A DNA stretch of 64,000 nucleotides from an uncultured Gammaproteobacteria bacterium (GTDB lineage Bacteria; Patescibacteriota; Patescibacteriia; UBA10025; JAHIVO01), in contig CAZVMV010000001.1 of the NCBI GenBank assembly GCA_964628855.1, forward strand, positions 77,145 through 141,144, read 5' to 3'. Shown piece after piece: positions 49,776 through 64,000 of the stretch. The translations under genes were made by a program, and so were the position numbers. Each line of letters starts with the position of its first letter. Within the stretch, counting starts at the first letter, position 1. A model generated the notes under the pieces. That model saw only the letters and a program-made list of their open reading frames with translations, was not told where the DNA came from and ran no database searches.

Positions 49776-50162
49776 TTATTTCACGTATTTTTTAATCTTC
49801 TCCACCACCTCTGAAGGCATGAAGTGTGCCTTGATGAGGTAGTCAGACGCGCCTAAATCAAGGCCTTTCTGGACATCGTCTCGCTGACCAAGGTTAGTCA
49901 GTAAAATTACCGGGATGTTCTTCGTCGAAGGATCCTCTTTCAGACTCTTTAATACGTCAAACCCGCTCATCTTTGGGAGCACAATGTCCAGCAAGATGAT
50001 TGACGGCAACTCGGCCTGGGCCATCTTGAGGCCTTTTTCCCCATCCGGTGCCAGATGGACTTCGAAATTTTCCAGGTTAAGCTTGGCCACGTACATGCCG
50101 GCCAAAAAAGCGTCATCTTCGACTAAAACGATTTTTATTTTGGATCCCTTGGTGTTAGCCAT
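49776..50162 (-). CDS. Stand-alone CheY-like receiver (PilH/PilG-like) inside the pil operon.
   Basis: IVLVEDD, LLDIVLPKMSGFDVL and LLTNLGQRDDVQKGLDLGASDYLIK. Paralogue of 34825..35232. Confidence 0.8.
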   Translation of the reverse strand: MANTKGSKIKIVLVEDDAFLAGMYVAKLNLENFEVHLAPDGEKGLKMAQAELPSIILLDIVLPKMSGFDVLKSLKEDPSTKNIPVILLTNLGQRDDVQKGLDLGASDYLIKAHFMPSEVVEKIKKYVK

Positions 50163-51954: not shown

Positions 51955-52851
51955 CTATGGTTGAAAAGGATTTTCGCGGTATGGGGCCGCCATTACGTCA
52001 GTAGATGATTCATTGCCGCTCGCGTCCACTCCGGTCACTGTGTAGAAATATGGGACGTTCGGGATGACCGTATCTAGAATATATTGCATATTTTCCGAAT
52101 CGTTCTGAATGTCGGCGCTTACCAAATTGCCAAGGAGTCCCCGTTCACTGGATTTGTAGATATGGACCGTACTGAAATCAGGGTCCAGAGGCACAAGCCA
52201 AGAGATTTTCACCTGACTGTCCGTCACATTCTGCACCGTTACATTCAATGGAGCGCTAGGCGGAAACGTGTCATGGGGCGTACCGGGAAATTGCTGGCCA
52301 TTTTTTGAAACAGCGCCCTCGGCATTGACCGTTAGAACGATATAATAATAAGTTGTGAGGTTAGCTAGATCGTGATCAGTGTAGTTCTGCAATGTGTCAG
52401 TAGCCTTCACCGTGGCGGTGTAAACTTCCTCCCCCAGAACGCCGACCTGCTCAGAACGGTACACTTTCACGGTAGTAAAATTTTTCTGTAGAGGAAGCTG
52501 CCAGCTGACGAGCAGGCGCCCACCCGTGCCAGGATCAGTGACGGCAATCTTTTCTGGCGCAAGCGGTACGTCAGCATCTAAATAAACTCCGGAAAGCTGT
52601 TCGGCAAACCCTGGGGCATTTTTTTCCATAAACGTCCCGATTTGTGCATCATTAAGCAGTCCTTCATTAAGCGGTGTTACTACGACCGGCTGCTCCAACG
52701 CGGTCAGGGTAGTATCCGGTACAGTATTCGTAACTGAAGGCTTGGCAAAATATGTACTATAAATGAAATATCCGCCCGGGAGCAAAAGGGTGCAAAAAAT
52801 TATCAATAATATTTTCGTCCTTTTATTTAACCCCGTTTTTTGCACTAACAT
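51955..52851 (-). CDS. Membrane-anchored protein with two fibronectin-type-III-like domains.
   Basis: N-terminal TM helix. Two FN3-like modules (LLVSWQLP...VKVYRS...YYYIVLTVNAEG and VKISWLVP...VHIYKS...YFYTVTGVDASGNES). Confidence 0.5.
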   Translation of the reverse strand: MLVQKTGLNKRTKILLIIFCTLLLPGGYFIYSTYFAKPSVTNTVPDTTLTALEQPVVVTPLNEGLLNDAQIGTFMEKNAPGFAEQLSGVYLDADVPLAPEKIAVTDPGTGGRLLVSWQLPLQKNFTTVKVYRSEQVGVLGEEVYTATVKATDTLQNYTDHDLANLTTYYYIVLTVNAEGAVSKNGQQFPGTPHDTFPPSAPLNVTVQNVTDSQVKISWLVPLDPDFSTVHIYKSSERGLLGNLVSADIQNDSENMQYILDTVIPNVPYFYTVTGVDASGNESSTDVMAAPYRENPFQP

Positions 52852-52861
52852 AATTCTACGC

Positions 52862-53443
52862 TTATTGATAATAAGTCGTTAGGTTGAGCGTATAGGCGCT
52901 GCTCCCCGGCAAGTATGATAGAGAGTTGAGCTCAAAGAAAGGCACCGAATTGCTCAGCTGGTCCAGAAAATTCTTCAGACCGGCATAACTCTCCAAACCG
53001 TCAAAACTGACGGTGATGTTCAGTTTCCGAATAACCGGCACCGCCGCCCCAGCACTCGCATTCGTGCTCGAGAATGCCCCACTGTCTATCGTTACGAGTT
53101 CCAGGCCGTTATCAGTTATCAGTTGCTTCAGCTTCATAATCACATAGGGCAGATCAGCCTCATGCGGCAATACTGATTGGATATGCTTCAATTGACTGTA
53201 GTCCAAGGCCTCATATTGTTTTTTCAGGTTCTTTAGTTTATCCAGCGCCCGTTGCTGCTGGTCGATAATTTGTTGTTTATTCTCAATGTCCGCCACGCCC
53301 ACCACCCTGATTTTGTCGACTGTTTGTTTGACAAAAAACCAGTAGCCGCCAGCTAAGATGACCAGCACCAACGCAATGACGATGCCGATATAATAGCGGT
53401 TAATGAAGGCTAGGACTGATTTTAATATTTTCCCCTTTTCCAT
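52862..53443 (-). CDS. pilO: PilO-like T4P alignment-complex protein.
   Basis: Single TM helix, a coiled-coil segment (QQIIDQQQRALDKLKNLKKQYEAL) and a C-terminal ferredoxin-like domain. Positioned after pilN. Confidence 0.6.
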   Translation of the reverse strand: MEKGKILKSVLAFINRYYIGIVIALVLVILAGGYWFFVKQTVDKIRVVGVADIENKQQIIDQQQRALDKLKNLKKQYEALDYSQLKHIQSVLPHEADLPYVIMKLKQLITDNGLELVTIDSGAFSSTNASAGAAVPVIRKLNITVSFDGLESYAGLKNFLDQLSNSVPFFELNSLSYLPGSSAYTLNLTTYYQ

Positions 53444-53449
53444 AGGTGG

Positions 53450-55354
53450 TTATTGAGGCCAATAAAATATTGTCGGCGTAATCATGAGATTGACGGAAAA
53501 TTTTACGGTGTCCTGTGTTTGCGCGATTAGTAGGCTGCCGCTGCCGGCTCCCAGGCAATTCGTATCCTCGGTGAAACAGATGCCGGTCACGGTTACCTTG
53601 GTCACGAAATCGGTGGCGCGCTTGAAGACTTCGAATTGTTTTATGGCTGATTCATAATCCTGGCCGATGGCTGCCAGCGAAACGCTGCCATTGACATCCG
53701 CGGTCAACGAAGTGAAATAAACGCCGGAAACTGTATAATTTTCTAGCTTGTTGAATATCCCGGACCAATAGACGTGCTTCTTTATCAATGTATCAATATT
53801 TCCCATTACTTGATTTAAATTTCGCACCTCTTCCTGCAATTGCTGGTAACTGTTTATTTCAATGCGGTTACTGGCAATCTGGCCGTTTAATCCGCTCACT
53901 TTTGCGGAAACATTTGAATAATAATAATTTGCCACTACCCATCCGCCAAAAACTATTCCGACAGCAATGATAATGCTCAATATGCCAACAAGAATTTTTG
54001 AAATGGGCAGGGCTTTTTCAATGATCTCTTCGGGCACCAGGTTCACTTCCCATTCGATCGGACTTAACATTTTGCCGGCGCCCTTTACGTCGGTCAATTT
54101 GACTCCGGGAATATTCTGCACCGAACCAATTTGTTTCAATGATGACTTTTTGGATGATATTTTTTTACCGCTGAATAAATCTTTGATTGCCTTCCAAAGT
54201 TTTTCCCACCACGAAACCTGGTCCACCTTTACTTCACTTGCCTTTTCTGCCGGGGGTGGCGGTGGGACGATTGGCGGGGCAGTTTTGATCGACGGGGGTG
54301 GCGGTGGTTTAGGCGTACTAATTATTGGCGTAACTACTGACTGACTCTGGACTGGTTTGACAGGCATGGGTGGAATAAATTCTTTGACCGTTTGTTTCGG
54401 TGTCTCGAGAATTTTATTTATATTTGGTTCTGGCCGGGTGAAAGGCGGCATGATTTTGTGAGGCACTGCACTATCACGATGCAACATTGGCTGCGGGATA
54501 AATGTTGGCGCTGATGGCGCAGCAACTTTTTGCTCAACACGCGCCACGATCGGCGGTTCTGGAGTTTTGATGAGCTTCTCTGGCTCTACGGGGGTCATGG
54601 AAATAATTTTTTGTTTGGGGGCGCGGACAAAAAATTTCTTAAACCAGTTAGCTATTTTTTTCCAAAATGATACTTTGGGCGCTTTCGGCTGTAGGGCCGG
54701 TATGGAAGTTTGCTTTATCACTTTGAATGCCGGATCAATTTTTGGGAAGCCTTCATGAGGAATATCAAAACGACGACCGTTAGTAGTGACCTCGGGCATT
54801 GTAACGCCATTATCCGGCTTCCTGCCATTCGTCGTGACGGTGATGACTTCGGTCGGTTTTGGTTTACGCACAGGTTCGACGGCTGGAATTTTTTCTGCGC
54901 GGATGGGCTGGTACTTTGGGAATGCATCTTTGGCCGTAACCGGAGGTACACTAGGCGCTGGCACCAGCGCTTTCGGTTTGCCGCCAAACATGGAGCTGAA
55001 AAAATTACTCATGCGTACTCCGAACGGTTTGGAGCTGCGGACCTGCATTCTTTCCTGTTCTGGCGCGACCATCTTTATTATCGGCCGTGGTGCTGGTTGC
55101 GGTTTGGGTTTCTCATAAACCAATTTCTCCTCGACCATCACTTTTTTCTCGGGCCACTGTTTTTCTGCATCAGCCACAACAGGCTTCGGCTTGGCGAAAG
55201 CCTGTTTGAAAAAACCCAAAACTCCGCCCCGCTTGATGGCTGGCTTACTTTTTTCAAGCTTAACAGGCCCAGTCATCTCAACGATGGGCGTGGGTTGGTA
55301 TTTTATTTTTCCCGTTTTAATTTTTTCCTCCGATGGGAGGAGGTTTATTGACAT
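53450..55354 (-). CDS. pilN: PilN-like protein with a ~430-aa Pro/Lys-rich cytoplasmic linker.
   Basis: Starts MSINLLP, the PilM-binding INLLP motif. Residues ~20-445 are low-complexity P/K/V-rich. Single TM helix ILVGILSIIIAVGIVFGGWVV, then a coiled coil and the periplasmic domain. 634 aa. Confidence 0.6.
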   Translation of the reverse strand: MSINLLPSEEKIKTGKIKYQPTPIVEMTGPVKLEKSKPAIKRGGVLGFFKQAFAKPKPVVADAEKQWPEKKVMVEEKLVYEKPKPQPAPRPIIKMVAPEQERMQVRSSKPFGVRMSNFFSSMFGGKPKALVPAPSVPPVTAKDAFPKYQPIRAEKIPAVEPVRKPKPTEVITVTTNGRKPDNGVTMPEVTTNGRRFDIPHEGFPKIDPAFKVIKQTSIPALQPKAPKVSFWKKIANWFKKFFVRAPKQKIISMTPVEPEKLIKTPEPPIVARVEQKVAAPSAPTFIPQPMLHRDSAVPHKIMPPFTRPEPNINKILETPKQTVKEFIPPMPVKPVQSQSVVTPIISTPKPPPPPSIKTAPPIVPPPPPAEKASEVKVDQVSWWEKLWKAIKDLFSGKKISSKKSSLKQIGSVQNIPGVKLTDVKGAGKMLSPIEWEVNLVPEEIIEKALPISKILVGILSIIIAVGIVFGGWVVANYYYSNVSAKVSGLNGQIASNRIEINSYQQLQEEVRNLNQVMGNIDTLIKKHVYWSGIFNKLENYTVSGVYFTSLTADVNGSVSLAAIGQDYESAIKQFEVFKRATDFVTKVTVTGICFTEDTNCLGAGSGSLLIAQTQDTVKFSVNLMITPTIFYWPQ

Positions 55355-55574
55355 ACCTGGGTTTTATTTTTGTTTTTTCGGAGCAAATGTAAAAGCCGGT
55401 ATTTTTGTGGCAATTTACCGAACTCCGCCGCTGCTTCTTTATTTGCAAATAGCGGTATTTATTTACATATATATTGTAGCATATCTAGCAAAATTAGTCA
55501 ATACCTGAAAACAATTATCTTCAAAATTTATCCTATTTTAATTAATAAATAATTCTTTGTCATATTTTTATTTA

Positions 55575-55604
55575 ATAAAAAACAATGGGTTTTTCGCCCA
55601 TTGT
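55575..55604 (-). terminator. Rho-independent terminator after pilM.
   Basis: CAATGGG-TTTTTCG-CCCATTG. On the minus strand it is followed by TTTTTTATT. Confidence 0.45.
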
Positions 55605-55624
55605 TCAGTATGTTTTATAATAAA

Positions 55625-56734
55625 TTACACTATTTCCCGCATTGCCAGTCCGATCGAAACCGCCATCCTAGGGCCCAGCTCCTTCAATAATGCGTCGATT
55701 TCTACCGGATGAATGACTCGTGCCCACGGATCACCGATAAACGACTTGATGTTGAATATCCCCTCGATCGTGTTTGGCATATTCGCTAAAAATGAGGAAC
55801 CGCCGGTCAAAATGACTTTCGTGATTGGTTTCTTGTTCTGATTCTGATAAATGTTCAGGATATAACGGATCTCATTAATTATGGAATTTATGACGTAGCT
55901 CACCGGTTTCGGAAGTTTGCTGATTGATTCTGACGTCACCGACATCCCGACGTCACGCTTGAATTGCTCGGCTTGCTCCTGGGTCAGTCCCATAGTTTCC
56001 TGCAATGCGCGCGTAATTCCCTTACCACCAACGTCAATACTGCGGTTTAAAATCGGAACGCCGCTAGAAAAAATTATTATACTGGAAGTCTGACTGCCGA
56101 TATCTATCACCATCACCGGGTTCATGTCATTGCCGACCAGCGAACGTTCGAGCGCAAAAGATTCCGTTTCCAGCCCGACCAGCTGCAGCCCGACCAGTTT
56201 GAAAAGCTCTACATACCGGTTGACCAAATTTTTCGGGGCAGCCGTCATCAATATCCGTAAATTTGTTTTTGCTGGCGTGGCGCCAATTTCTTTTTTGTCA
56301 TTTTTTACATCTTTTTTCCCGTCGGAGTTGGCTTGCGGGGCAGCGGCCTCGCCAGGCTCTTTCAAAACTTCCCAGTCGAGAATCATTTCTTCAAGCGGGA
56401 TCGGTACGAATTTTTTCGCTTCCCAGCGGATGGCAGAGACCAAATCCTTATCCTTCATAGCCGGCAGGTTGATGATGGAACTGAACACTGAAAATGACGG
56501 CAAGGCTGCAATTGCGGCAGTAGCCCCAGCCCTGGTCTGTTTCATCAGCTCCTGTAGCTGGTTGGCGATTGCCGCTCTGGCAGCCGGATTGTCATCCTTG
56601 ATGATATTGTAAGTCTCGTCGATAAAACCATAAGTAACCAGCTGTGGTCGCCCATTTCCGGCGTTACGCAGTTCGACCAGTTTGATGCTGGCACCACTGA
56701 GATCGATACCGAGATAATTTAGATTTTTTGCCAT
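55625..56734 (-). CDS. pilM: Type IV pilus assembly ATPase-fold protein PilM.
   Basis: Actin-like fold (GIDLSGASIKLVEL). Carries a Lys/Asp-rich insertion. 369 aa. Upstream of pilN. Confidence 0.85.
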   Translation of the reverse strand: MAKNLNYLGIDLSGASIKLVELRNAGNGRPQLVTYGFIDETYNIIKDDNPAARAAIANQLQELMKQTRAGATAAIAALPSFSVFSSIINLPAMKDKDLVSAIRWEAKKFVPIPLEEMILDWEVLKEPGEAAAPQANSDGKKDVKNDKKEIGATPAKTNLRILMTAAPKNLVNRYVELFKLVGLQLVGLETESFALERSLVGNDMNPVMVIDIGSQTSSIIIFSSGVPILNRSIDVGGKGITRALQETMGLTQEQAEQFKRDVGMSVTSESISKLPKPVSYVINSIINEIRYILNIYQNQNKKPITKVILTGGSSFLANMPNTIEGIFNIKSFIGDPWARVIHPVEIDALLKELGPRMAVSIGLAMREIV

Positions 56735-56745
56735 ATATTTTTTAT

Positions 56746-59700
56746 TTATGGAGTGACGCGATGGTAGACCGGCAAAGCCTGAATGAAATCGACGAGACCG
56801 GGCGGAGTGTTCGCCACTACCCTCCCATCATACAGTATCTGTTCGGCCGGATCAAGATTCTTCATGTACTTGCGGTCAAAATTGTAGCCGGTACCGGCCA
56901 CGAACAAACCGGAAACAGATAACGGAATCTGATAATCAATAGCTAGTGTTGTAGAGTTCTTCTGCAGACATCGTGTTTCCCCCGCTGCGGCGATAAGTTC
57001 GGTCGTATCACTGCCCCGACGTATGCGCAGGTCAAATTCTGAAATACCAGCAACACCCGGACGGTATGTCGTACGCGCAATAAACGCATTGATCTGACGA
57101 GTAATATCAGAAAACGCGACCTGTTGGTTGTTCCCAAAAGCATTCAAAGACACGTTTTGTGCCACTTCGCTTACCTCTGCAGTAAGCGGCAATGCCCACG
57201 GGGCTCCGGCAGTTGCCGTAATCTGTGCTGCGGTGGGATAATTTTGCAATAATCCCTGACGTAATTCCATCGCAGTAGTGCCGGCTGCACACATAGTCGT
57301 ATGTACCTGGGCTTTCAATATTTCCGCATTTATAGGGATGCTAATCGGGAATTGCAGATACGCGCGTTGGGCTGTCGTACCGTTCCAGCCGAATAATAGG
57401 TTTTGGGTAGACGAATCAGTGGTCGTACTTGTTACGGTTGATCCTATTGGTGGCGGCGTGGTCGGATACGTTGCCCGCCGAGGTGAATACTCGATTACCA
57501 GCTGTGGCGCGTTGGTTGCCGCAGAGTCGTAGGTCTGGAATCCACGGGATTCACCCGTCGCCGCATCCCCTTCTTTTATTACTAAACCCAGATAGTTACC
57601 GGCGGAATAATTATCCTTGCTGACAAAACGCTGAATGATGGCTTTCAGGTCCGGAGTCTGGTACCATGTGCCGGATACCCAGTTGCTGTTGATCAGGAAA
57701 TTGACGCTGTTCGAAGTCGCAATATTATATAAAGTGGGATTCGGCGAACTGGTGAAATTTAGCGTGCTCGCATTCTCCCCGTCGATCAGATACAGGCGGG
57801 CATTGAAATCACCAATACCTGAACCGTTACTCCTCAAACGTAAATAGGCGCTCTTGATCTCTGCCCCGGCTGGTACACCCAACGGGAACCTCAAGAAAGA
57901 ACGATTTGTCGTACTGGCGCCAGGTCTGCCGAAACTACTGGCTACATCCTGATAAGCGTTCAAATATGTGGAACCGTCATACGATACGAAAGTATCGTCA
58001 ACCGATTCAGTATATGAATATGAAGGCGCTTTTCTACCTGTGCTGATTATGCCCTCCAGATTCTCCACCACAGTTGTGGTCGTAGGATCATCAGCAGTCG
58101 AAGGATTATCAATGGCTGCAACCACCGAGGATACTTTACTGATCAGTGAATTGATATAGACATTTCCTCTGACGATGATGGCGGCAGACGGCAACTCGAC
58201 TAAATTCGTTATATGAGGATCATCACATGTTCCACTACCACAATCCGCATCCACCCGGCAAACTGAATTGTCGCTGCAACGTTTGTCGTAATAGATGTTT
58301 GCATTTATTTCCAGATTGCCGTCAACGACAATTACTCCTGCTCCGGAAGTTGCCGGATTTGTAGAATCATCACCCTGTAGGAATGTCATGTCGCTATTAA
58401 TGGTATATGTCGGCTGTCCGTGGAAATAGTAAACCTTATTTCCCAGAACCGTATTGCGAGCCGGCAGGCCGGTCCAGGTGAAGGCACCGCTAGTGCTGAT
58501 ATCCGTGCCCACTCCTTCGACAACAGTTGTGCCGTGCCTATTCTTACTGCCATTGGTGCGGCCGACCAGGCCATTTACATCCAGCTTCGCTAGCAGATCT
58601 GCGCCAAGCGTCTGGATGGATGGCTGGTTCTGGACTAATGGGCTGAAACCTGGCTGTTCCGGCAACTGAGATGTGGGTGAGCCGGTAGTAGTGCCGCCAT
58701 AATAACCAGAGATGCCGCTGATGGCGCCGCCTGATTCAATCAAATATGTCGAGGTATAATCGCCTGTACCGCGTGGTGGAGGTGCGAGGGAAATGTTCTG
58801 GCTGGCATGGATGTCGGCGAACATTGTCTTCACCCACGGTATGCCCAATAATGCACCGGCGGGCATAAATTCTACCCAACCATTCCCACCCTGCGCAATG
58901 CCCGGCGACCACAAGGAATAATCAATATTATTTTTACCGCAGTAATAGAGCTCAAACGTATCCCAGCCGTAATCCAAACATTGTGGGTAAACAGTGTCAG
59001 TACATTCGTTTGATGAATGGTAGTTTTTAAGTACACCGGTATCCATGAGTCGTTTCTCAATATGCCAATTAGCTGTGCTCGTTAAGCTCATTTCCGGAAT
59101 GTTACCAACGGCATACATATATGTACCATCAATAGCGAAACCATTTATCCCATAATCTCCCGATGGATTATTCAATTCCATCGCCCCATTACTTAGCACG
59201 ACATTGCCTGGCTGGGAATAACCCCACCCATTTGTAGTTGCAGTGCTAAAAGGCGTTCCAGAATTTTTATCCCATTTTTGGTAATGCCAGCGCGGGGCGC
59301 CACCGGCGTACAGATATGTTCCGTCAACTGACAGGGCTACTGCTGAGTCTGACGAAGTGGATGAATACTGGATAAATCCGCCCGTGCCAAACCCGGCGTC
59401 TGGAGAGCCGGTCACTTTGTCGTATTTTCCGATAAGCAAATTTAATGTCCCGCTGAAAATGTTACCTCCGACATACAAAGACTGGCCATCCAGGATTATA
59501 TCTGAGGCAAAATAAGAATTTGCCGGACCGGTCACCGCCCCGCCGGTACCAAAGGCTGGCTCTAGGGTGCCATTATCAAGTCGGCGTTTCTCGATGCGCC
59601 ATTTGTCCGGACCCGAACCAGAAGTATTGGCATTCGAGCCGGCGATGTACATGTATGTACCGTCGGCAGTTATGCTGAATATCGCATTGTCGCAACCCGG

Positions 59701-62700
59701 GATACCGCATACCGGCAGCACTTCATCGATTAAGCCAGACTGCCATCCGCCGGTGGTATTAGTTGTGTACAGATTGCCGTTTGCTTTCAAATACTTTGCG
59801 ATTTGCCAGTTCGAGACGCCGCCTTTGGCAGCGACATAAATATATTTCGCGTCCTGGGTGATATACAAACCATAGTAAGCATATCTTGCCGGCTCGATTA
59901 CCCCGTCACCATCAAAACTGTTTACGAGAGCACCAGTGTCCAGCCGGCGTTTCTCTATGCGCCACTGACTGACATTATCTAGCGTACCAACGACGTACAT
60001 ATAGGTTCCATTTGAATCAATTACAATGTCAGTTGCGTCTTTGGTGGCACTGCCGCCAGTAATAACGCCGTTTGTCCCGAAAGTCGTACTACATCTGGCG
60101 GCGGTGCAAACTTGGCCATTGTCCAGCCGGCGTTTCTCGATCCGCCAGCCGTCATTTGCTGGATCAGCGTCTTTGGTGTTGCCATAGGAACCGATTGCAT
60201 ACAAGTATTGATTGGTACTGTCAATTGCAACCTGTGTCGCCATCCCCTGCGGTCCATCCACTATGCCATTGTCATTAAAAGCGCCGCAGTATAAGGCGCT
60301 GAAATATTTCTCGTTCCATATTACGTGCGGATTACCGAACCGGTCCAATTTGATTAATGGGTTATTGCTCCTGCCGGTTGTAGTTTTAGACAGGTTTAGG
60401 TTGGGGGTATTTATTGTCTGTGAGACATTGAATGTATTACCCCCAGCAGTTACCCAGGCACTGCCGGACCATTGGGCCATTAAAATATCCGGCTGTAATA
60501 TTCCGCTCCCGTCATCGTCGTTATAATCAGACCAGGCAATGTGCGGAATGTTGTTGGTATCGAAAACTACCGACTGGGAATAGTCATACGCATGGTCAAT
60601 ATTCTTATTGACCTGCAAATTCGTAATGTCCGCCTGCCCGCTCACGGATACCCAGGCGCTCCCGTTCCAGCGGCGGTATAAAAGTTTGTTCGGGTCGCGC
60701 CAGACTATACCGGGCACATGGTTGGAATCAACTGCCACATCAGGATAAACTCCATCAGGTGTGGGTATGCCCAAACCCGCAATTGAACCCACGTCATTGT
60801 TTAACGAAAGGTTAGCTCCGCCAAAACCGCTTGTCCCATCATTGCTAGCCGTGACCCAATTGGTGCCGTTCCAGTACCGGTAAAAAATATGATTACCAGT
60901 ATTCAATCCGGGCGTTCCGGCGGGTACTTGCTGTTGCCAAGTGACCATAGGTGTCGTGCCGTCCATGGCCAATCTCGGAAAACTGGAAAAATTATTTACC
61001 GTTTTACTGACATCCAAATTATTTGCATCATTGTTCATCGGCTGCCATGAACCGCTGACTAGTTGTTTGAAATAAATTCCAGTAGTGGCGCCTGACCAAG
61101 GTCCGTGCCGGAATACGACATTCAATGTGCCTGTACTATCTATCTTTAAAGTAGGAGTCTGGGCCGGATTTGTGCTTACTTCCTGTTGGGCTGTCCATGT
61201 GCCGGCCGACGCGTCCCAGCGTGAATATACGATTTTTCCGTATTCATTTGCCCAACCGCCTTCCTGCCAGACGATGTGCGGATTTCCATCACTATCCAGC
61301 GCTAACGAAGGTGACACTGAGCCGTCGCCGTTCGGGTCGATGCCAGTATCCGGATTGGAATTATTACTGACATTAAGCCGGTTAGAAATTTTTTCTGCGT
61401 CAGTCCAAGCCGGGTCGTACGTAACCCCTGTGACGGTGGCCCATTTGCCGGCCAAGAGTTGGAGATAATAAATATCGAAGGAATTATTGGTTTTATTAAA
61501 TGCAGACCATGCAAGATGAGGGCTGCCATGGCCATCCAGAACCATGGATGATTGCGGCCATTTGGAATAATCCTTTACCCAGCCGTCCTGAGTGGCGTTC
61601 TCAGGGTTCAGCCAGGACGACTTGCTGGTGAAGGCGGAAGTCTGTGCATTCCATCCCCAGCCGAACACGCTGTACAATTTAGTGTCATTTGGGTTTACGT
61701 TCGGGTCAGCCAGGAATGATTGGGAGTCAATTTCAGTCCCGGACAATTGGTACGGACCAGCATTGCCCCTGCCGTCATTGTATGTGCCCGCTAATTTCAT
61801 CCAGCCCCAGTCAGTATAGCCCTGGTCAGTTCCGGCTTTCTTGAGCGTCAGGATCCTGGCCCAACCCTCTATGCCGCGGGTGGTGCCGTTGAAATTGGCA
61901 GTGGCTGTAGCCCGGCATTCTTCGGTAGCCGGCGTCGAAGCGTCTACCGGGCAGGTATCTCCAGTTTTGCAGGAATAAAATATGCAAGTGGCAGTGCTGG
62001 GTGACGGACAGTTGCTGAGATCCTTGTCCCAGCAAATCTTGGAGACATCCGTGGAGCAGGTGCCATACTTTTTGCCAGTGCCGTCCTGGGCGTTGTAACA
62101 AAATCCATAGAGCGGGCTGCCGACCGGCGTACCGGCACTCTCGATACAGCTATTGGAAACGCAATCCTCATTACGGTAACACCCTCGCTGGGAATCGTCT
62201 GCACAGACTTTAGCATTCATGCTGATCCATCCCAGTCCGGTTTTTGGGGTGGTGGTTGAAACGGAAAATTTGGGTATATAAAGATTTGTGCTGTACAGGG
62301 AGTGCAGGCCCGTCCAGATTGAACCAATGGCGTAAGTCAATTTGAATGGCTGGCTGCTGGTCGGGAATGCCTGGACCTCGGGAGCAGAGTTTAAAATTGT
62401 TGAGGCTCTGATCCGGTATACTTTCCCTCCATCATATCCGGCTGCCCAAACATTTTTTGTATCATACTCAAGTCCCATGATAACCCCACCAGTTGCTTGT
62501 AATTCAAAATCGGATTTGACCCATGTCCCGACATCATTATTGATTTTTAAGACAGAAACAAGCCCTCTGGTACCAGTATCGCCATGACTGACCCACCAAT
62601 AGTTGCCATCAAAAACTATTTCCCGCGGATAACGGTCAGTGCCAGAAGGCAATGAGAAGGTTTTTACCTGGTTGGCTGGATCTATACCGTCAGTCCGGTT

Positions 62701-64000
62701 GAGACGGGATACACTCGCCCCATTAAAATTGTTTACCCAAATCGACTGACCGTCAAAGTACGGCTGCTGAGGGGTATTGATACCATACGCGCTACAACGC
62801 ACCGGTGTCGGTGATGGAGATGTGCCATTACAATTTATCTCCTTGGTTTCGCCGAGATTCAAGCTGCGCCTGATACGTACTACACCGTTACGAGAGGCGA
62901 TCCAAAAATCCTTACCGTCCCAGACTAATCCCGACTGCCCGGAGTCCGGGGTTGCACATGATGCATCGCCATAATTTACCGTCTCAATCAGTTGACCAAC
63001 CGTAATTCCGCCATATCTGGCCGGATCATTCACTGTGGCGAAACGGTATAATCGGCAGGCGGCTTGGCCTGTCGCCCACAAGTCCGTACCGTCATATACC
63101 AACCGCATAAAATCTTCGTTAGGGTAGGCTCCGGAATAATTAAACTTTTCCGTAACAAAGGTAGAAGGATTTATCCGATATAACAAAGATGGTCGTTGTC
63201 CTAGAGCGCTATTAACTAGATGAGGCGCAGCCCAGAGATATTGACCATCATATGCGATTTGTTTGAACGAATATTCAAACGCAAGTAGTCCGGACCCACC
63301 GGTAACATTTAATGTCTTATCTTCTGAAACATTACTTTGACTGACAGACTGGCCGGAAGAGCTCCAGGCATACCCCTCGAGCGGGTTAATTTCCCGGGAT
63401 GCTTCAAAATTGCTATTAACCCCCCAGCTCAATGCCGTATCGCCGCTGTAATCTGCCGGCGGGTTTGCGAAAAAATTCAGGTAATTTAACGAGATCCAGC
63501 CGGCACTGGTAGTCCACGCCCAACCGACAATATTATTTTTAATAAGGAATAAGGTGGCGACCGGTCCGAAAGTAGTCGGGACAGATTCCTGGTTCTGTGC
63601 CTTGACCTTGAATTCGTAACGGACAGACGGATCAAGCCCTGTAGCGGTGATCCCATTATCCCCGCTCCATCCCGTACCGACCGTAGTACCTTTCACCGCC
63701 CAATGCCCAACAGTATCCGGAGTCAGGTTGCAGTTCAGCGCCCAGTCGACTGTGACTCGTCCGTTAAAGTCGTCATCAGTATTTAAATAACCCGTATCAT
63801 CAATAGTCCCGTCCGCTTTATATTTTGTTATGCAAATCGCAAAATTGGTGTTTGCGGGATTTCCGTTTTCCTGCACCTTCACGTTTATTTCGCCTCCTGG
63901 CAATGACTGCACAATCGGCCGACTGGGGACATTGGCCAGCGTATATTTACACTGCGCGGCAACCGGACCTTCTGTAGTGTAATCACCGGTGCCGTCAATT
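56746..64000 (-). CDS. Giant multidomain surface/adhesin-like protein, at least 2,417 aa. Its N-terminus lies beyond the window end.
   Basis: The frame stays open from 56746 through position 64000, where the track assigned a GTG as an artificial start. Domains in order: FN3-like; ~6 propeller blades ([FY]DGxxxW); an 18-Cys region; BNR/W repeats (YRYWNGTNW, YRRWNGSAW); ~7 delta-60-type repeats (WRIEKRRLDNGxxxxxFGTxG); a tandem pair of DNRLRE-like beta-sandwich modules (FLRFPLGVPAGAEIKSAYLRL / YLQFPISIPINAEILKAQV). Ends 11 nt before pilM. Confidence 0.8.
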   Translation of the reverse strand, partial: IDGTGDYTTEGPVAAQCKYTLANVPSRPIVQSLPGGEINVKVQENGNPANTNFAICITKYKADGTIDDTGYLNTDDDFNGRVTVDWALNCNLTPDTVGHWAVKGTTVGTGWSGDNGITATGLDPSVRYEFKVKAQNQESVPTTFGPVATLFLIKNNIVGWAWTTSAGWISLNYLNFFANPPADYSGDTALSWGVNSNFEASREINPLEGYAWSSSGQSVSQSNVSEDKTLNVTGGSGLLAFEYSFKQIAYDGQYLWAAPHLVNSALGQRPSLLYRINPSTFVTEKFNYSGAYPNEDFMRLVYDGTDLWATGQAACRLYRFATVNDPARYGGITVGQLIETVNYGDASCATPDSGQSGLVWDGKDFWIASRNGVVRIRRSLNLGETKEINCNGTSPSPTPVRCSAYGINTPQQPYFDGQSIWVNNFNGASVSRLNRTDGIDPANQVKTFSLPSGTDRYPREIVFDGNYWWVSHGDTGTRGLVSVLKINNDVGTWVKSDFELQATGGVIMGLEYDTKNVWAAGYDGGKVYRIRASTILNSAPEVQAFPTSSQPFKLTYAIGSIWTGLHSLYSTNLYIPKFSVSTTTPKTGLGWISMNAKVCADDSQRGCYRNEDCVSNSCIESAGTPVGSPLYGFCYNAQDGTGKKYGTCSTDVSKICWDKDLSNCPSPSTATCIFYSCKTGDTCPVDASTPATEECRATATANFNGTTRGIEGWARILTLKKAGTDQGYTDWGWMKLAGTYNDGRGNAGPYQLSGTEIDSQSFLADPNVNPNDTKLYSVFGWGWNAQTSAFTSKSSWLNPENATQDGWVKDYSKWPQSSMVLDGHGSPHLAWSAFNKTNNSFDIYYLQLLAGKWATVTGVTYDPAWTDAEKISNRLNVSNNSNPDTGIDPNGDGSVSPSLALDSDGNPHIVWQEGGWANEYGKIVYSRWDASAGTWTAQQEVSTNPAQTPTLKIDSTGTLNVVFRHGPWSGATTGIYFKQLVSGSWQPMNNDANNLDVSKTVNNFSSFPRLAMDGTTPMVTWQQQVPAGTPGLNTGNHIFYRYWNGTNWVTASNDGTSGFGGANLSLNNDVGSIAGLGIPTPDGVYPDVAVDSNHVPGIVWRDPNKLLYRRWNGSAWVSVSGQADITNLQVNKNIDHAYDYSQSVVFDTNNIPHIAWSDYNDDDGSGILQPDILMAQWSGSAWVTAGGNTFNVSQTINTPNLNLSKTTTGRSNNPLIKLDRFGNPHVIWNEKYFSALYCGAFNDNGIVDGPQGMATQVAIDSTNQYLYAIGSYGNTKDADPANDGWRIEKRRLDNGQVCTAARCSTTFGTNGVITGGSATKDATDIVIDSNGTYMYVVGTLDNVSQWRIEKRRLDTGALVNSFDGDGVIEPARYAYYGLYITQDAKYIYVAAKGGVSNWQIAKYLKANGNLYTTNTTGGWQSGLIDEVLPVCGIPGCDNAIFSITADGTYMYIAGSNANTSGSGPDKWRIEKRRLDNGTLEPAFGTGGAVTGPANSYFASDIILDGQSLYVGGNIFSGTLNLLIGKYDKVTGSPDAGFGTGGFIQYSSTSSDSAVALSVDGTYLYAGGAPRWHYQKWDKNSGTPFSTATTNGWGYSQPGNVVLSNGAMELNNPSGDYGINGFAIDGTYMYAVGNIPEMSLTSTANWHIEKRLMDTGVLKNYHSSNECTDTVYPQCLDYGWDTFELYYCGKNNIDYSLWSPGIAQGGNGWVEFMPAGALLGIPWVKTMFADIHASQNISLAPPPRGTGDYTSTYLIESGGAISGISGYYGGTTTGSPTSQLPEQPGFSPLVQNQPSIQTLGADLLAKLDVNGLVGRTNGSKNRHGTTVVEGVGTDISTSGAFTWTGLPARNTVLGNKVYYFHGQPTYTINSDMTFLQGDDSTNPATSGAGVIVVDGNLEINANIYYDKRCSDNSVCRVDADCGSGTCDDPHITNLVELPSAAIIVRGNVYINSLISKVSSVVAAIDNPSTADDPTTTTVVENLEGIISTGRKAPSYSYTESVDDTFVSYDGSTYLNAYQDVASSFGRPGASTTNRSFLRFPLGVPAGAEIKSAYLRLRSNGSGIGDFNARLYLIDGENASTLNFTSSPNPTLYNIATSNSVNFLINSNWVSGTWYQTPDLKAIIQRFVSKDNYSAGNYLGLVIKEGDAATGESRGFQTYDSAATNAPQLVIEYSPRRATYPTTPPPIGSTVTSTTTDSSTQNLLFGWNGTTAQRAYLQFPISIPINAEILKAQVHTTMCAAGTTAMELRQGLLQNYPTAAQITATAGAPWALPLTAEVSEVAQNVSLNAFGNNQQVAFSDITRQINAFIARTTYRPGVAGISEFDLRIRRGSDTTELIAAAGETRCLQKNSTTLAIDYQIPLSVSGLFVAGTGYNFDRKYMKNLDPAEQILYDGRVVANTPPGLVDFIQALPVYHRVTP

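Follow-up and report, generated by a model that had tools for sequence, protein, structure and literature searches.

A 64,000-nucleotide stretch of contig CAZVMV010000001.1 (the window, to which all coordinates refer), from an ultra-small bacterium of the Patescibacteria, carries a type IV pilus operon whose pilN gene (53450..55354, minus strand; 634 amino acids (aa) plus stop in the open reading frame (ORF) list and its translation) encodes a protein with two copies of a PilM docking-type motif, MSINLLPSEE at the N-terminus and WEVNLVPEE ahead of the transmembrane (TM) helix. The C-terminal 200 residues are a complete, though divergent, PilN, with motif, TM helix, coiled coil and ferredoxin-like domain, and the 434-residue extension that precedes them is translated and maintained by selection. 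This dual-motif anatomy is solid and widespread, and from it we infer a function in which the N-terminal copy may offer PilM a second place to dock.

Anatomy of the long PilN

Characterized PilN proteins have a mass of 22-23 kDa (PMC6916266, PMC6325625) and a cytoplasmic tail of 'a dozen residues' (PMC3724824). PilM, a soluble actin-like ATPase, binds this short N-terminal tail and is thereby brought to the membrane (PMC3724824), and a structure of PilM with PilN(1-15) exists (cited in PMC6325625). The window protein departs from these in that tail: 453 residues, in place of about a dozen, precede its TM helix, and a first-pass annotation of this DNA had rightly called the cytoplasmic part much longer than in characterized PilN. 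The same annotation had the docking motif shifted some 430 residues from the membrane, with just the TM helix plus a domain in the periplasm after the linker. That picture is contradicted by WEVNLVPEE; the motif is duplicated instead, with one copy at the canonical place. This TM-proximal copy (aa 435-443; 54026..54052, minus) lies 10 residues ahead of the helix in the sequence SPIE-W-E-V-N-L-V-P-E-E-IIEKALPISK (aa 431-453). Its core, VNLVP, spans aa 437-441, and P441 precedes the helix by 12 residues, the canonical PilN spacing; 12 homologues agree without exception at W435, V437, N438, L439 and P441. The N-terminal copy (aa 1-10; 55325..55354, minus) is likewise invariant in 12 homologues at I3, N4, L5, L6 and P7. 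The corresponding motif peptides are MSINLLPSEEKIKTGK for the N-terminal copy (spanning N4 and P7) and SPIEWEVNLVPEEIIEK for the TM-proximal one (spanning N438 and P441).

The TM helix itself (aa 454-475; 53930..53995, minus) is the sole hydrophobic segment in a Kyte-Doolittle scan, so that the earlier prediction of a single helix stands while its placement, at about aa 447-468, has to be corrected. The extracytoplasmic part that follows (53453..53929, minus) is, in the AlphaFold2 model, a long coiled-coil helix and then an alpha-beta-beta-alpha-beta-beta domain. Counted from the TM-proximal motif, this C-terminal module (C-module) is 200 residues long, close to an entire canonical PilN in size, and measures 197-209 residues in all 13 homologues. 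The model, built from an 11-sequence alignment (predicted local distance difference test (pLDDT) 72.8), has one long helix (23-97) that serves as both TM segment and coiled coil, ahead of the alpha-beta-beta-alpha-beta-beta domain. The best Foldseek matches in the Protein Data Bank (PDB) are the GspL-type periplasmic domains of EpsL/PulL/XcpY (target TM-score, a measure of fold similarity, 0.65-0.71), with PilO next; none of the PDB matches of the C-module reaches E<=0.001, and a ferredoxin-like fold by itself leaves PilN and PilO undistinguished. Among profile comparisons, NCBIfam gives a weak match to the PilN-like part of the Amuc_1101 family (E=0.014), and in a match to Myxococcus xanthus PilN (3jc8) that is not significant (E=0.18), the TM-proximal L-V-P pairs with LLP (residues 7-9) and one TM helix aligns with the other. 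C-module structure, gene order and motif together support a divergent equivalent of PilN, recognized by position, motif and fold and not by membership of the Pfam family.

The extension (aa 1-434) is mostly a disordered Pro/Lys-rich spacer with conserved short motifs and amphipathic helices in between. It is 16.1% Pro and 14.1% Lys, has a net charge of +39 and contains KPKP three times. The first-pass annotation spoke of a low-complexity P/K/V-rich linker, and its Pro/Lys richness, PKPPPPPSIKTAPPIVPPPPP stretch and KPKP repeats are borne out; uniform low complexity is not, as invariant islands interrupt it. In a 12-sequence alignment of long PilN (31-61% identity) the invariant residues are M1, I3-P7, M27-T-G-P30, G44-V-L46, F48, K50, F53, P56, F145-P146, Y148 and V173, and the Pro-rich stretches between the islands, including the poly-proline spacer PKPPPPPSIKTAPPIVPPPPP (aa 348-368; 54251..54313, minus), vary in length and sequence among homologues. 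Conservation delimits an N-terminal module (N-module) at aa 1-58 (55181..55354, minus), which comprises the motif, IVEMTGP (aa 24-30) and GGVLGFFKQAFAKPKP (aa 43-58) and is 78-83% identical to the N-modules of two homologues, P0002 and P0003. Its profile matches the N-terminus of about 55 family representatives, and gives no meaningful match in Pfam or the PDB and nothing at E<=0.001 among 5.8 billion proteins. A second profile match reveals a degenerate tandem repeat of the N-module that lacks the motif, at aa 75-129 (PIIKMVAP ... MSNFFSSMFGGKPKA; 54968..55132, minus); its local alignment score is 54, against 26.8 +/- 5.4 for shuffled sequences, none of the 500 shuffles scoring as high. Two islands follow, FPKYQP (aa 145-150; 54905..54922, minus), with F145, P146 and Y148 invariant, and EVITVTT (aa 169-175; 54830..54850, minus), with V173 invariant and V170 and T175 nearly so.

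Further along lie two amphipathic helices. Helix 1, rich in Trp, Phe and Lys (VSFWKKIANWFKKFFVRAPKQK, aa 228-249; 54608..54673, minus), has nearly invariant S229, W237 and F242, and its core WKKIANWFKKF (aa 231-241) has a hydrophobic moment of 0.80, the maximum of the extension. Helix 2 (VSWWEKLWKAIKDLFSGKK, aa 380-398; 54161..54217, minus), with the core EKLWKAIKDLF (aa 384-394), reaches 0.75, against an extension-wide mean of 0.29 +/- 0.16. The two helices resemble each other, with 10 of 500 shuffles attaining the score of this comparison. Over 134 relatives the aromatic amphipathic helices number 0.64 per extension, compared with 0.10 after shuffling (about 6-fold; Wilcoxon p=2e-5). The same calculation gives a moment of 0.78 for the membrane-targeting helix of Escherichia coli FtsA. 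Neither Pfam nor NCBIfam recognizes a domain in aa 1-430, and no PilM-like actin domain is evident on this chain, and the low pLDDT (27-39) of aa 1-60 and 395-448 in an AlphaFold2 chimera is consistent with disorder in isolation.

The internal repeats of the extension, the likeness of its helices and an extra copy in P0003 make it look as if short units had been repeatedly duplicated within it, each unit consisting of a short motif, an amphipathic helix and a basic Pro/Lys tail. The P0003 homologue (locus L006; 727 aa) has an additional tandem copy of a SVWQKIARWF.KLF.R.PKQKIVP unit together with its spacer, which shows that the extension is still growing through duplication.

Selection, family and transcription of the long frame

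The earliest available start after the upstream stop gives MSINLLPSEEK, and the 634-codon frame, which is on the minus strand, is unbroken, as the first-pass annotation had it. Among 5.8 billion proteins searched, 13 were homologues, 495-727 residues long and with one partial sequence; all 12 complete ones keep the long frame, the M-x-INLLP start and W[ED]VNL[VIL]P ahead of the TM helix, the homologues with the long frame measuring 577-727 aa. The long frame recurs in independent NCBI, JGI, ENA and Logan assemblies, and homologues with as little as 31-37% identity still keep the 434-codon stretch open and in frame, which is more than chance would allow. Codon-level comparison of the window gene with P0002 and P0003 gave, for nonsynonymous (pN) and synonymous (pS) differences, pN 0.10 and pS 0.41-0.50 over aa 1-60, 0.30-0.31 and 0.76-0.78 over aa 61-428, and 0.14-0.15 and 0.73-0.74 over the C-module. 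Because pN is below pS in every segment, the whole ORF is under purifying selection as a protein. Identity to the same two homologues is 78-83% in the first 60 residues, 74-75% in the folded domain and 51-54% in the spacers. The lower pS in the first 60 codons (55175-55354; 0.41-0.50, against 0.73-0.78 elsewhere in pilN, from a small sample) hints at a constraint on the mRNA near the pilN start.

A profile of the C-module, run against 1.84 billion cluster representatives, produced 3410 hits at E<=0.001, of which 1373 had E<=1e-10; the family figures given here refer to the best 150 of the 3410, 145 of these being complete proteins. By these counts, a large family in Patescibacteria has the long PilN with both motifs as its norm. 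The TM helix begins past residue 60 in 137 of the 145 complete relatives (median 248, maximum 588), which is the opposite of a linker absent in all close homologues, the outcome that the first-pass annotation had named as fatal to its proposal; the extension of the window protein is near the 85th-90th percentile for length. A TM-proximal [ILVM][NDST]xxP motif is found in 136 of the 137 long relatives, its start lying, at the median, 15 residues ahead of the hydrophobic window, and both motif positions are filled in 126. Within the first 50 residues the four-residue core occurs in 127 of the 137 and the core with Pro in 87, compared with 1% of shuffles. The N-terminal logo reads x-D-I-N-L-L-P(65%)/K(19%)-[ED]-E and the TM-proximal one [LFW]-[DE]-V-N-L-[IVL]-P-E-[ED]-L, the Pro in the latter being imposed by the search pattern, and the two share the consensus x-[DE]-[IV]-N-L-[LIV]-P-E-E, flanking acidic residues included (117-120 relatives). 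In a few short members, and in two genomes labeled Saccharibacteria, PilN is canonical, at about 183-231 residues, and has the TM-proximal motif alone; this copy is the ancestral one. The species-representative genomes with the long form are Patescibacteria, Kerfeldbacteria among them. Loci L009, L010 and L014 are titled 'uncultured Gammaproteobacteria' and yet have a Patescibacteria-type long pilN, with pilM just upstream in L010 and L014; these bins are probably mislabeled.

The gap between pilM and pilN (55355-55624) contains a terminator-like hairpin right after pilM (55580..55606, minus; a 10-bp stem and then a T run) and a promoter-like site dedicated to pilN (TTGACT-17-TACAAT with a TG extension; 55473..55501, minus). 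The same element, in the form TTGACT-N17-(TG)CTA[CA]AAT, is present about 120-165 nt ahead of the pilN start in the gap of all 13 other long-pilN loci (L001, L003, L005, L006, L008 and L010-L017), and the gap measures 206-405 bp across the long-pilN loci. At the short-pilN loci L018 and L019 the spacing is 1 and 17 bp and the promoter element is absent, and in Thermus pilM and pilN overlap (PMC6325625). Judged by these sequence elements, the long pilN is consistently uncoupled from pilM at the level of transcription (14 long-pilN loci).

The leader of pilN also has an A-rich box, AAAACAAAAAT (55366-55376, minus), which lies 11 nt before the pilN ATG and occurs once in the 64-kb window. Of the 13 other long-pilN loci, whose proteins are only 31-61% identical to that of the window, 12 have the form AAAACAAAAA[AT] 10-28 nt ahead of the start of pilN, and the box may be a Shine-Dalgarno-independent translation signal. 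The leader matched no Rfam family, and RNAalifold, run on three close sequences, gave almost no covariation.

Candidate roles for the second motif

Work in Thermus has shown that PilM and PilN together stimulate the assembly ATPase PilF, and that PilM or PilN alone does not (PMC6325625). With two docking-type motifs on one chain, each long PilN may carry two docking sites for PilM, a reading to which we give about an even chance. The TM-proximal site would be the obligatory anchor for PilM, as in all PilN proteins, and the N-terminal site would be a second one, held on a flexible arm. Amphipathic helices in the arm, GGVLGFFKQAF about 35 residues past the motif and then the Trp-rich ones, would pin it to the inner face of the membrane, so that the pinned arm recreates the geometry of a motif with a nearby membrane anchor without a second TM helix. 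Both aa 231-241 and aa 384-394 have the combination of an aromatic/hydrophobic face and a basic face that is associated with membrane targeting. An estimate from generic polymer scaling would give the arm a contour length near 150 nm and, as a random coil, a span of roughly 15-20 nm, a reach that would cover any position around its own machine or a neighboring one. More than one PilM could then be present per PilN, PilM could be kept captive in a pool at the machine, or neighboring PilM subunits could be bridged and cross-braced, and a separate, conserved pilN promoter fits an uncoupled PilM:PilN stoichiometry. A more tentative proposal, possible although we would not favor it, is that the extension is a multivalent membrane-associated scaffold that provides a second tethered layer of PilM or of another actin-like ATPase. 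If so, pilus machines would gain a cytoplasmic platform of non-canonical stoichiometry or be linked to their neighbors, and a machine that these episymbionts need for host attachment would have undergone a lineage-specific redesign.

Several observations weigh against two docking sites on a divergent PilN. The N-terminal copy is the less strict of the two, with Lys or Gln in place of Pro in about one-third of relatives (INLLK, IDFLK), and this variable Pro could reflect a different partner or a relaxed role. In an AlphaFold2 single-chain chimera of PilN(1-60), PilM and PilN(395-448), run with an alignment for PilM only, PilM itself is modeled with pLDDT above 90 and both PilN pieces with 27-39, neither motif being ordered, in what is a fused chain with no alignment for the peptides. 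The binding of the amphipathic helices to membrane is predicted from sequence. A Pfam search found no match of the window protein to PF05137 (PilN) at E<0.1, and the matches to PF05137 in four of 11 homologous C-modules are weak (best E=0.0024).

The main rival reading, to which the variable Pro of the N-terminal copy and the further conserved islands give real scope although it is on balance rather unlikely, is that the N-terminal motif does not bind PilM and that the arm is a functional disordered cytoplasmic region, duplicated and then repurposed. Its partners could be PilB, PilC, the response regulator of the operon or another actin-like ATPase, or it could bind anionic lipid or incoming DNA, or serve as an entropic spacer around the machine. 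Such a role would suit the net charge of +39 and the Lys/Pro/Glu-rich composition found family-wide, the conserved islands IVEMTGP, FPKY and VITVTT, which have no known connection to PilM, the loss of the N-terminal Pro in some relatives and an N-terminal piece left undocked on PilM in the chimera. However, AlphaFold2 left the TM-proximal copy undocked too, so the chimera does not discriminate; the two motifs have the same extended consensus down to the acidic flanks, and in the window protein's clade the N-terminal one does not vary. One chain with two copies of one motif and a long flexible connector would also suit a competition between the two for one groove on a single PilM, in which the distal copy would be a tethered competitor that tunes engagement of PilM at the membrane-proximal site and so regulates pilus assembly. 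In its favor, PilN binding in Thermus alters the effect of PilM on the ATPase (PMC6325625). We regard this competition as improbable: the amphipathic helices and the dedicated promoter are left unexplained by it, and present data do not separate it from a pair of independent sites.

A single INLLP peptide about 430 residues from the membrane, holding PilM on a long tether with no membrane-proximal site, would follow from MSINLLP at the N-terminus and a TM helix at aa 454-475 if it were not for the invariant WEVNLVPEE (aa 435-443), which fills the canonical position, and we consider it very improbable. Even less credence is due to an artefact, whether a frameshift, a mis-assembly, a fusion of two genes or an untranslated 428-codon leader with the true start at Met429. 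An in-frame ATG at aa 429, with AAGGG 10 nt upstream, would indeed yield a normal 206-residue PilN, and the first-pass annotation, which allowed for a fusion artefact of annotation, had named an internal start with a ribosome-binding site before the TM helix, together with transcript data against translation of the N-terminal part, as a case that would undo its proposal. ATG and AAGGG are there, but Met429 is variable among homologues, and most long ORFs in the window have A/T-rich upstream regions with no recognizable Shine-Dalgarno sequence; the argument from the ribosome-binding site is uninformative. An artefact does not survive comparison with the homologues, which keep frame and synteny in independent assemblies, with pN well below pS throughout the extension, the first 60 codons as the most conserved part of the gene and a conserved promoter and leader ahead of the MSINLLP start. 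An additional short isoform from Met429 may exist beside the long protein. Pro-rich segments often span cell walls, and the first-pass annotation had entertained a peptidoglycan-spanning role. Passage of the segment through cell wall or periplasm is, in our estimate, the least probable explanation of all, as it lies N-terminal to the sole TM helix, lacks a signal peptide and has a charge of +39, which by the positive-inside rule places it in the cytoplasm.

Operon neighbors and relation to known systems

The neighbors bear out the first-pass placement of this gene in the PilN position of a type IV pilus operon, with pilM upstream and pilO downstream. The actin-like partner pilM (55625..56734, minus) matches TIGR01175 (E=7.7e-53) and PF11104, and its product matches the PDB PilM chains 3jc8, 2ych and 5eou with E=1e-25 to 1e-22. 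A Lys/Asp/Glu-rich insertion at PilM aa ~118-155 (window about 56270-56383) differs in sequence and length among homologues and has pLDDT 51-56, against >90 for the rest of the model. The pilO-like gene (52862..53443, minus; PF04350, E=4e-6) begins 7 bp downstream of pilN and keeps that position in L001 and L003, and it is followed by genes for a fibronectin type III (FN3) protein, the ATPase PilB, a response regulator, PilC and a pilin-like ORF. The order giant ORF-pilM-pilN-pilO-fn3-pilB-RR-pilC-pilin, RR being the response regulator, is conserved in the looked-up homologue contigs L001 and L003, where 200-270 bp separate pilM from pilN, and in the short L005 contig as far as the start of pilO, just past which the contig stops; pilM adjoins pilN in L005-L017. 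Neither the FN3-domain membrane protein (51955-52851, minus), located between pilO and pilB, nor the stand-alone response regulator (49776-50162, minus), located between pilB and pilC, belongs to the canonical pilMNO or pilBC sets, and both occur in all syntenic loci that reach that far. The giant ORF directly upstream of pilM (2388 aa; 56746-63912, minus) has a weak BNR_4 match only, and the same position is occupied in L001 and L003 by equally large ORFs with products of 2646 and 3934 aa; it may encode a pilus-associated surface protein.

Few systems are enriched across the Candidate Phyla Radiation (CPR), and type IV pili are one of them (PMC6744442); cultivated Saccharibacteria use these pili for attachment to the host and for twitching motility (PMC12206443). 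The working of PilM, PilN and PilO in assembly is an open question of the field (PMC6916266). A family of PilN with two motifs would bear on it as a natural experiment on PilM:PilN stoichiometry and on the membrane hold of the actin-like ring, and two docking-type motifs predict extra cytoplasmic density that cryo-electron tomography could seek. Méheust et al. count a PilN family as one of the CPR type IV pilus components, with no comment on its architecture (PMC6744442), and the full-text literature searched, with subscription journals mostly outside its scope, holds no description of a long, proline-rich, disordered or CPR-specific PilN. Source databases label the long homologues 'hypothetical protein', and automatic annotation of this kind, with no Pfam hit, misses the PilN of many Patescibacteria.

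Like the canonical PilN of Thermus thermophilus, Pseudomonas aeruginosa and M. xanthus (PF05137 / IPR007813), the window protein is encoded between pilM and pilO; [IV]NL[LV]P precedes its single TM helix by about 12 residues, and the helix leads into a coiled coil and an extracytoplasmic domain of ferredoxin-like fold. Unlike them, it has 434 extra cytoplasmic residues with a second motif at the new N-terminus, its sequence is too divergent for the Pfam model, and its gene is uncoupled from pilM. A bitopic protein with a large cytoplasmic N-terminal part is also found in GspL and in the PilM-PilN fusion of Clostridioides difficile and the Amuc_1101 family (PMC3724824, PMC6916266), and GspL proteins, the type II secretion counterparts of PilN, are the best fold matches of the extracytoplasmic domain. 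In those proteins, however, the cytoplasmic part is a folded actin-like domain, whereas the window protein has a disordered arm that bears motifs, with PilM as a separate protein. The short Trp/Phe/Lys amphipathic helices resemble the targeting helices of FtsA and MinD, with a moment equal to that of the FtsA helix, and as in the FtsA-FtsN pair a bitopic protein would recruit an actin-like ATPase to the membrane through a short peptide on its cytoplasmic side. The helices differ from those of FtsA and MinD in residing on the bitopic partner and not on the ATPase, and their membrane binding is predicted. Lineage-specific enlargement of a PilN/PilO-type component in bacteria without an outer membrane is known from the PilO of monoderm Firmicutes (Streptococcus sanguinis, 56.6 kDa; PMC6916266). 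In S. sanguinis PilO the enlargement is C-terminal to a PilO-like N-terminal portion (PMC6916266), whereas in the long PilN described here it is PilN that is enlarged, and the addition is cytoplasmic and disordered.

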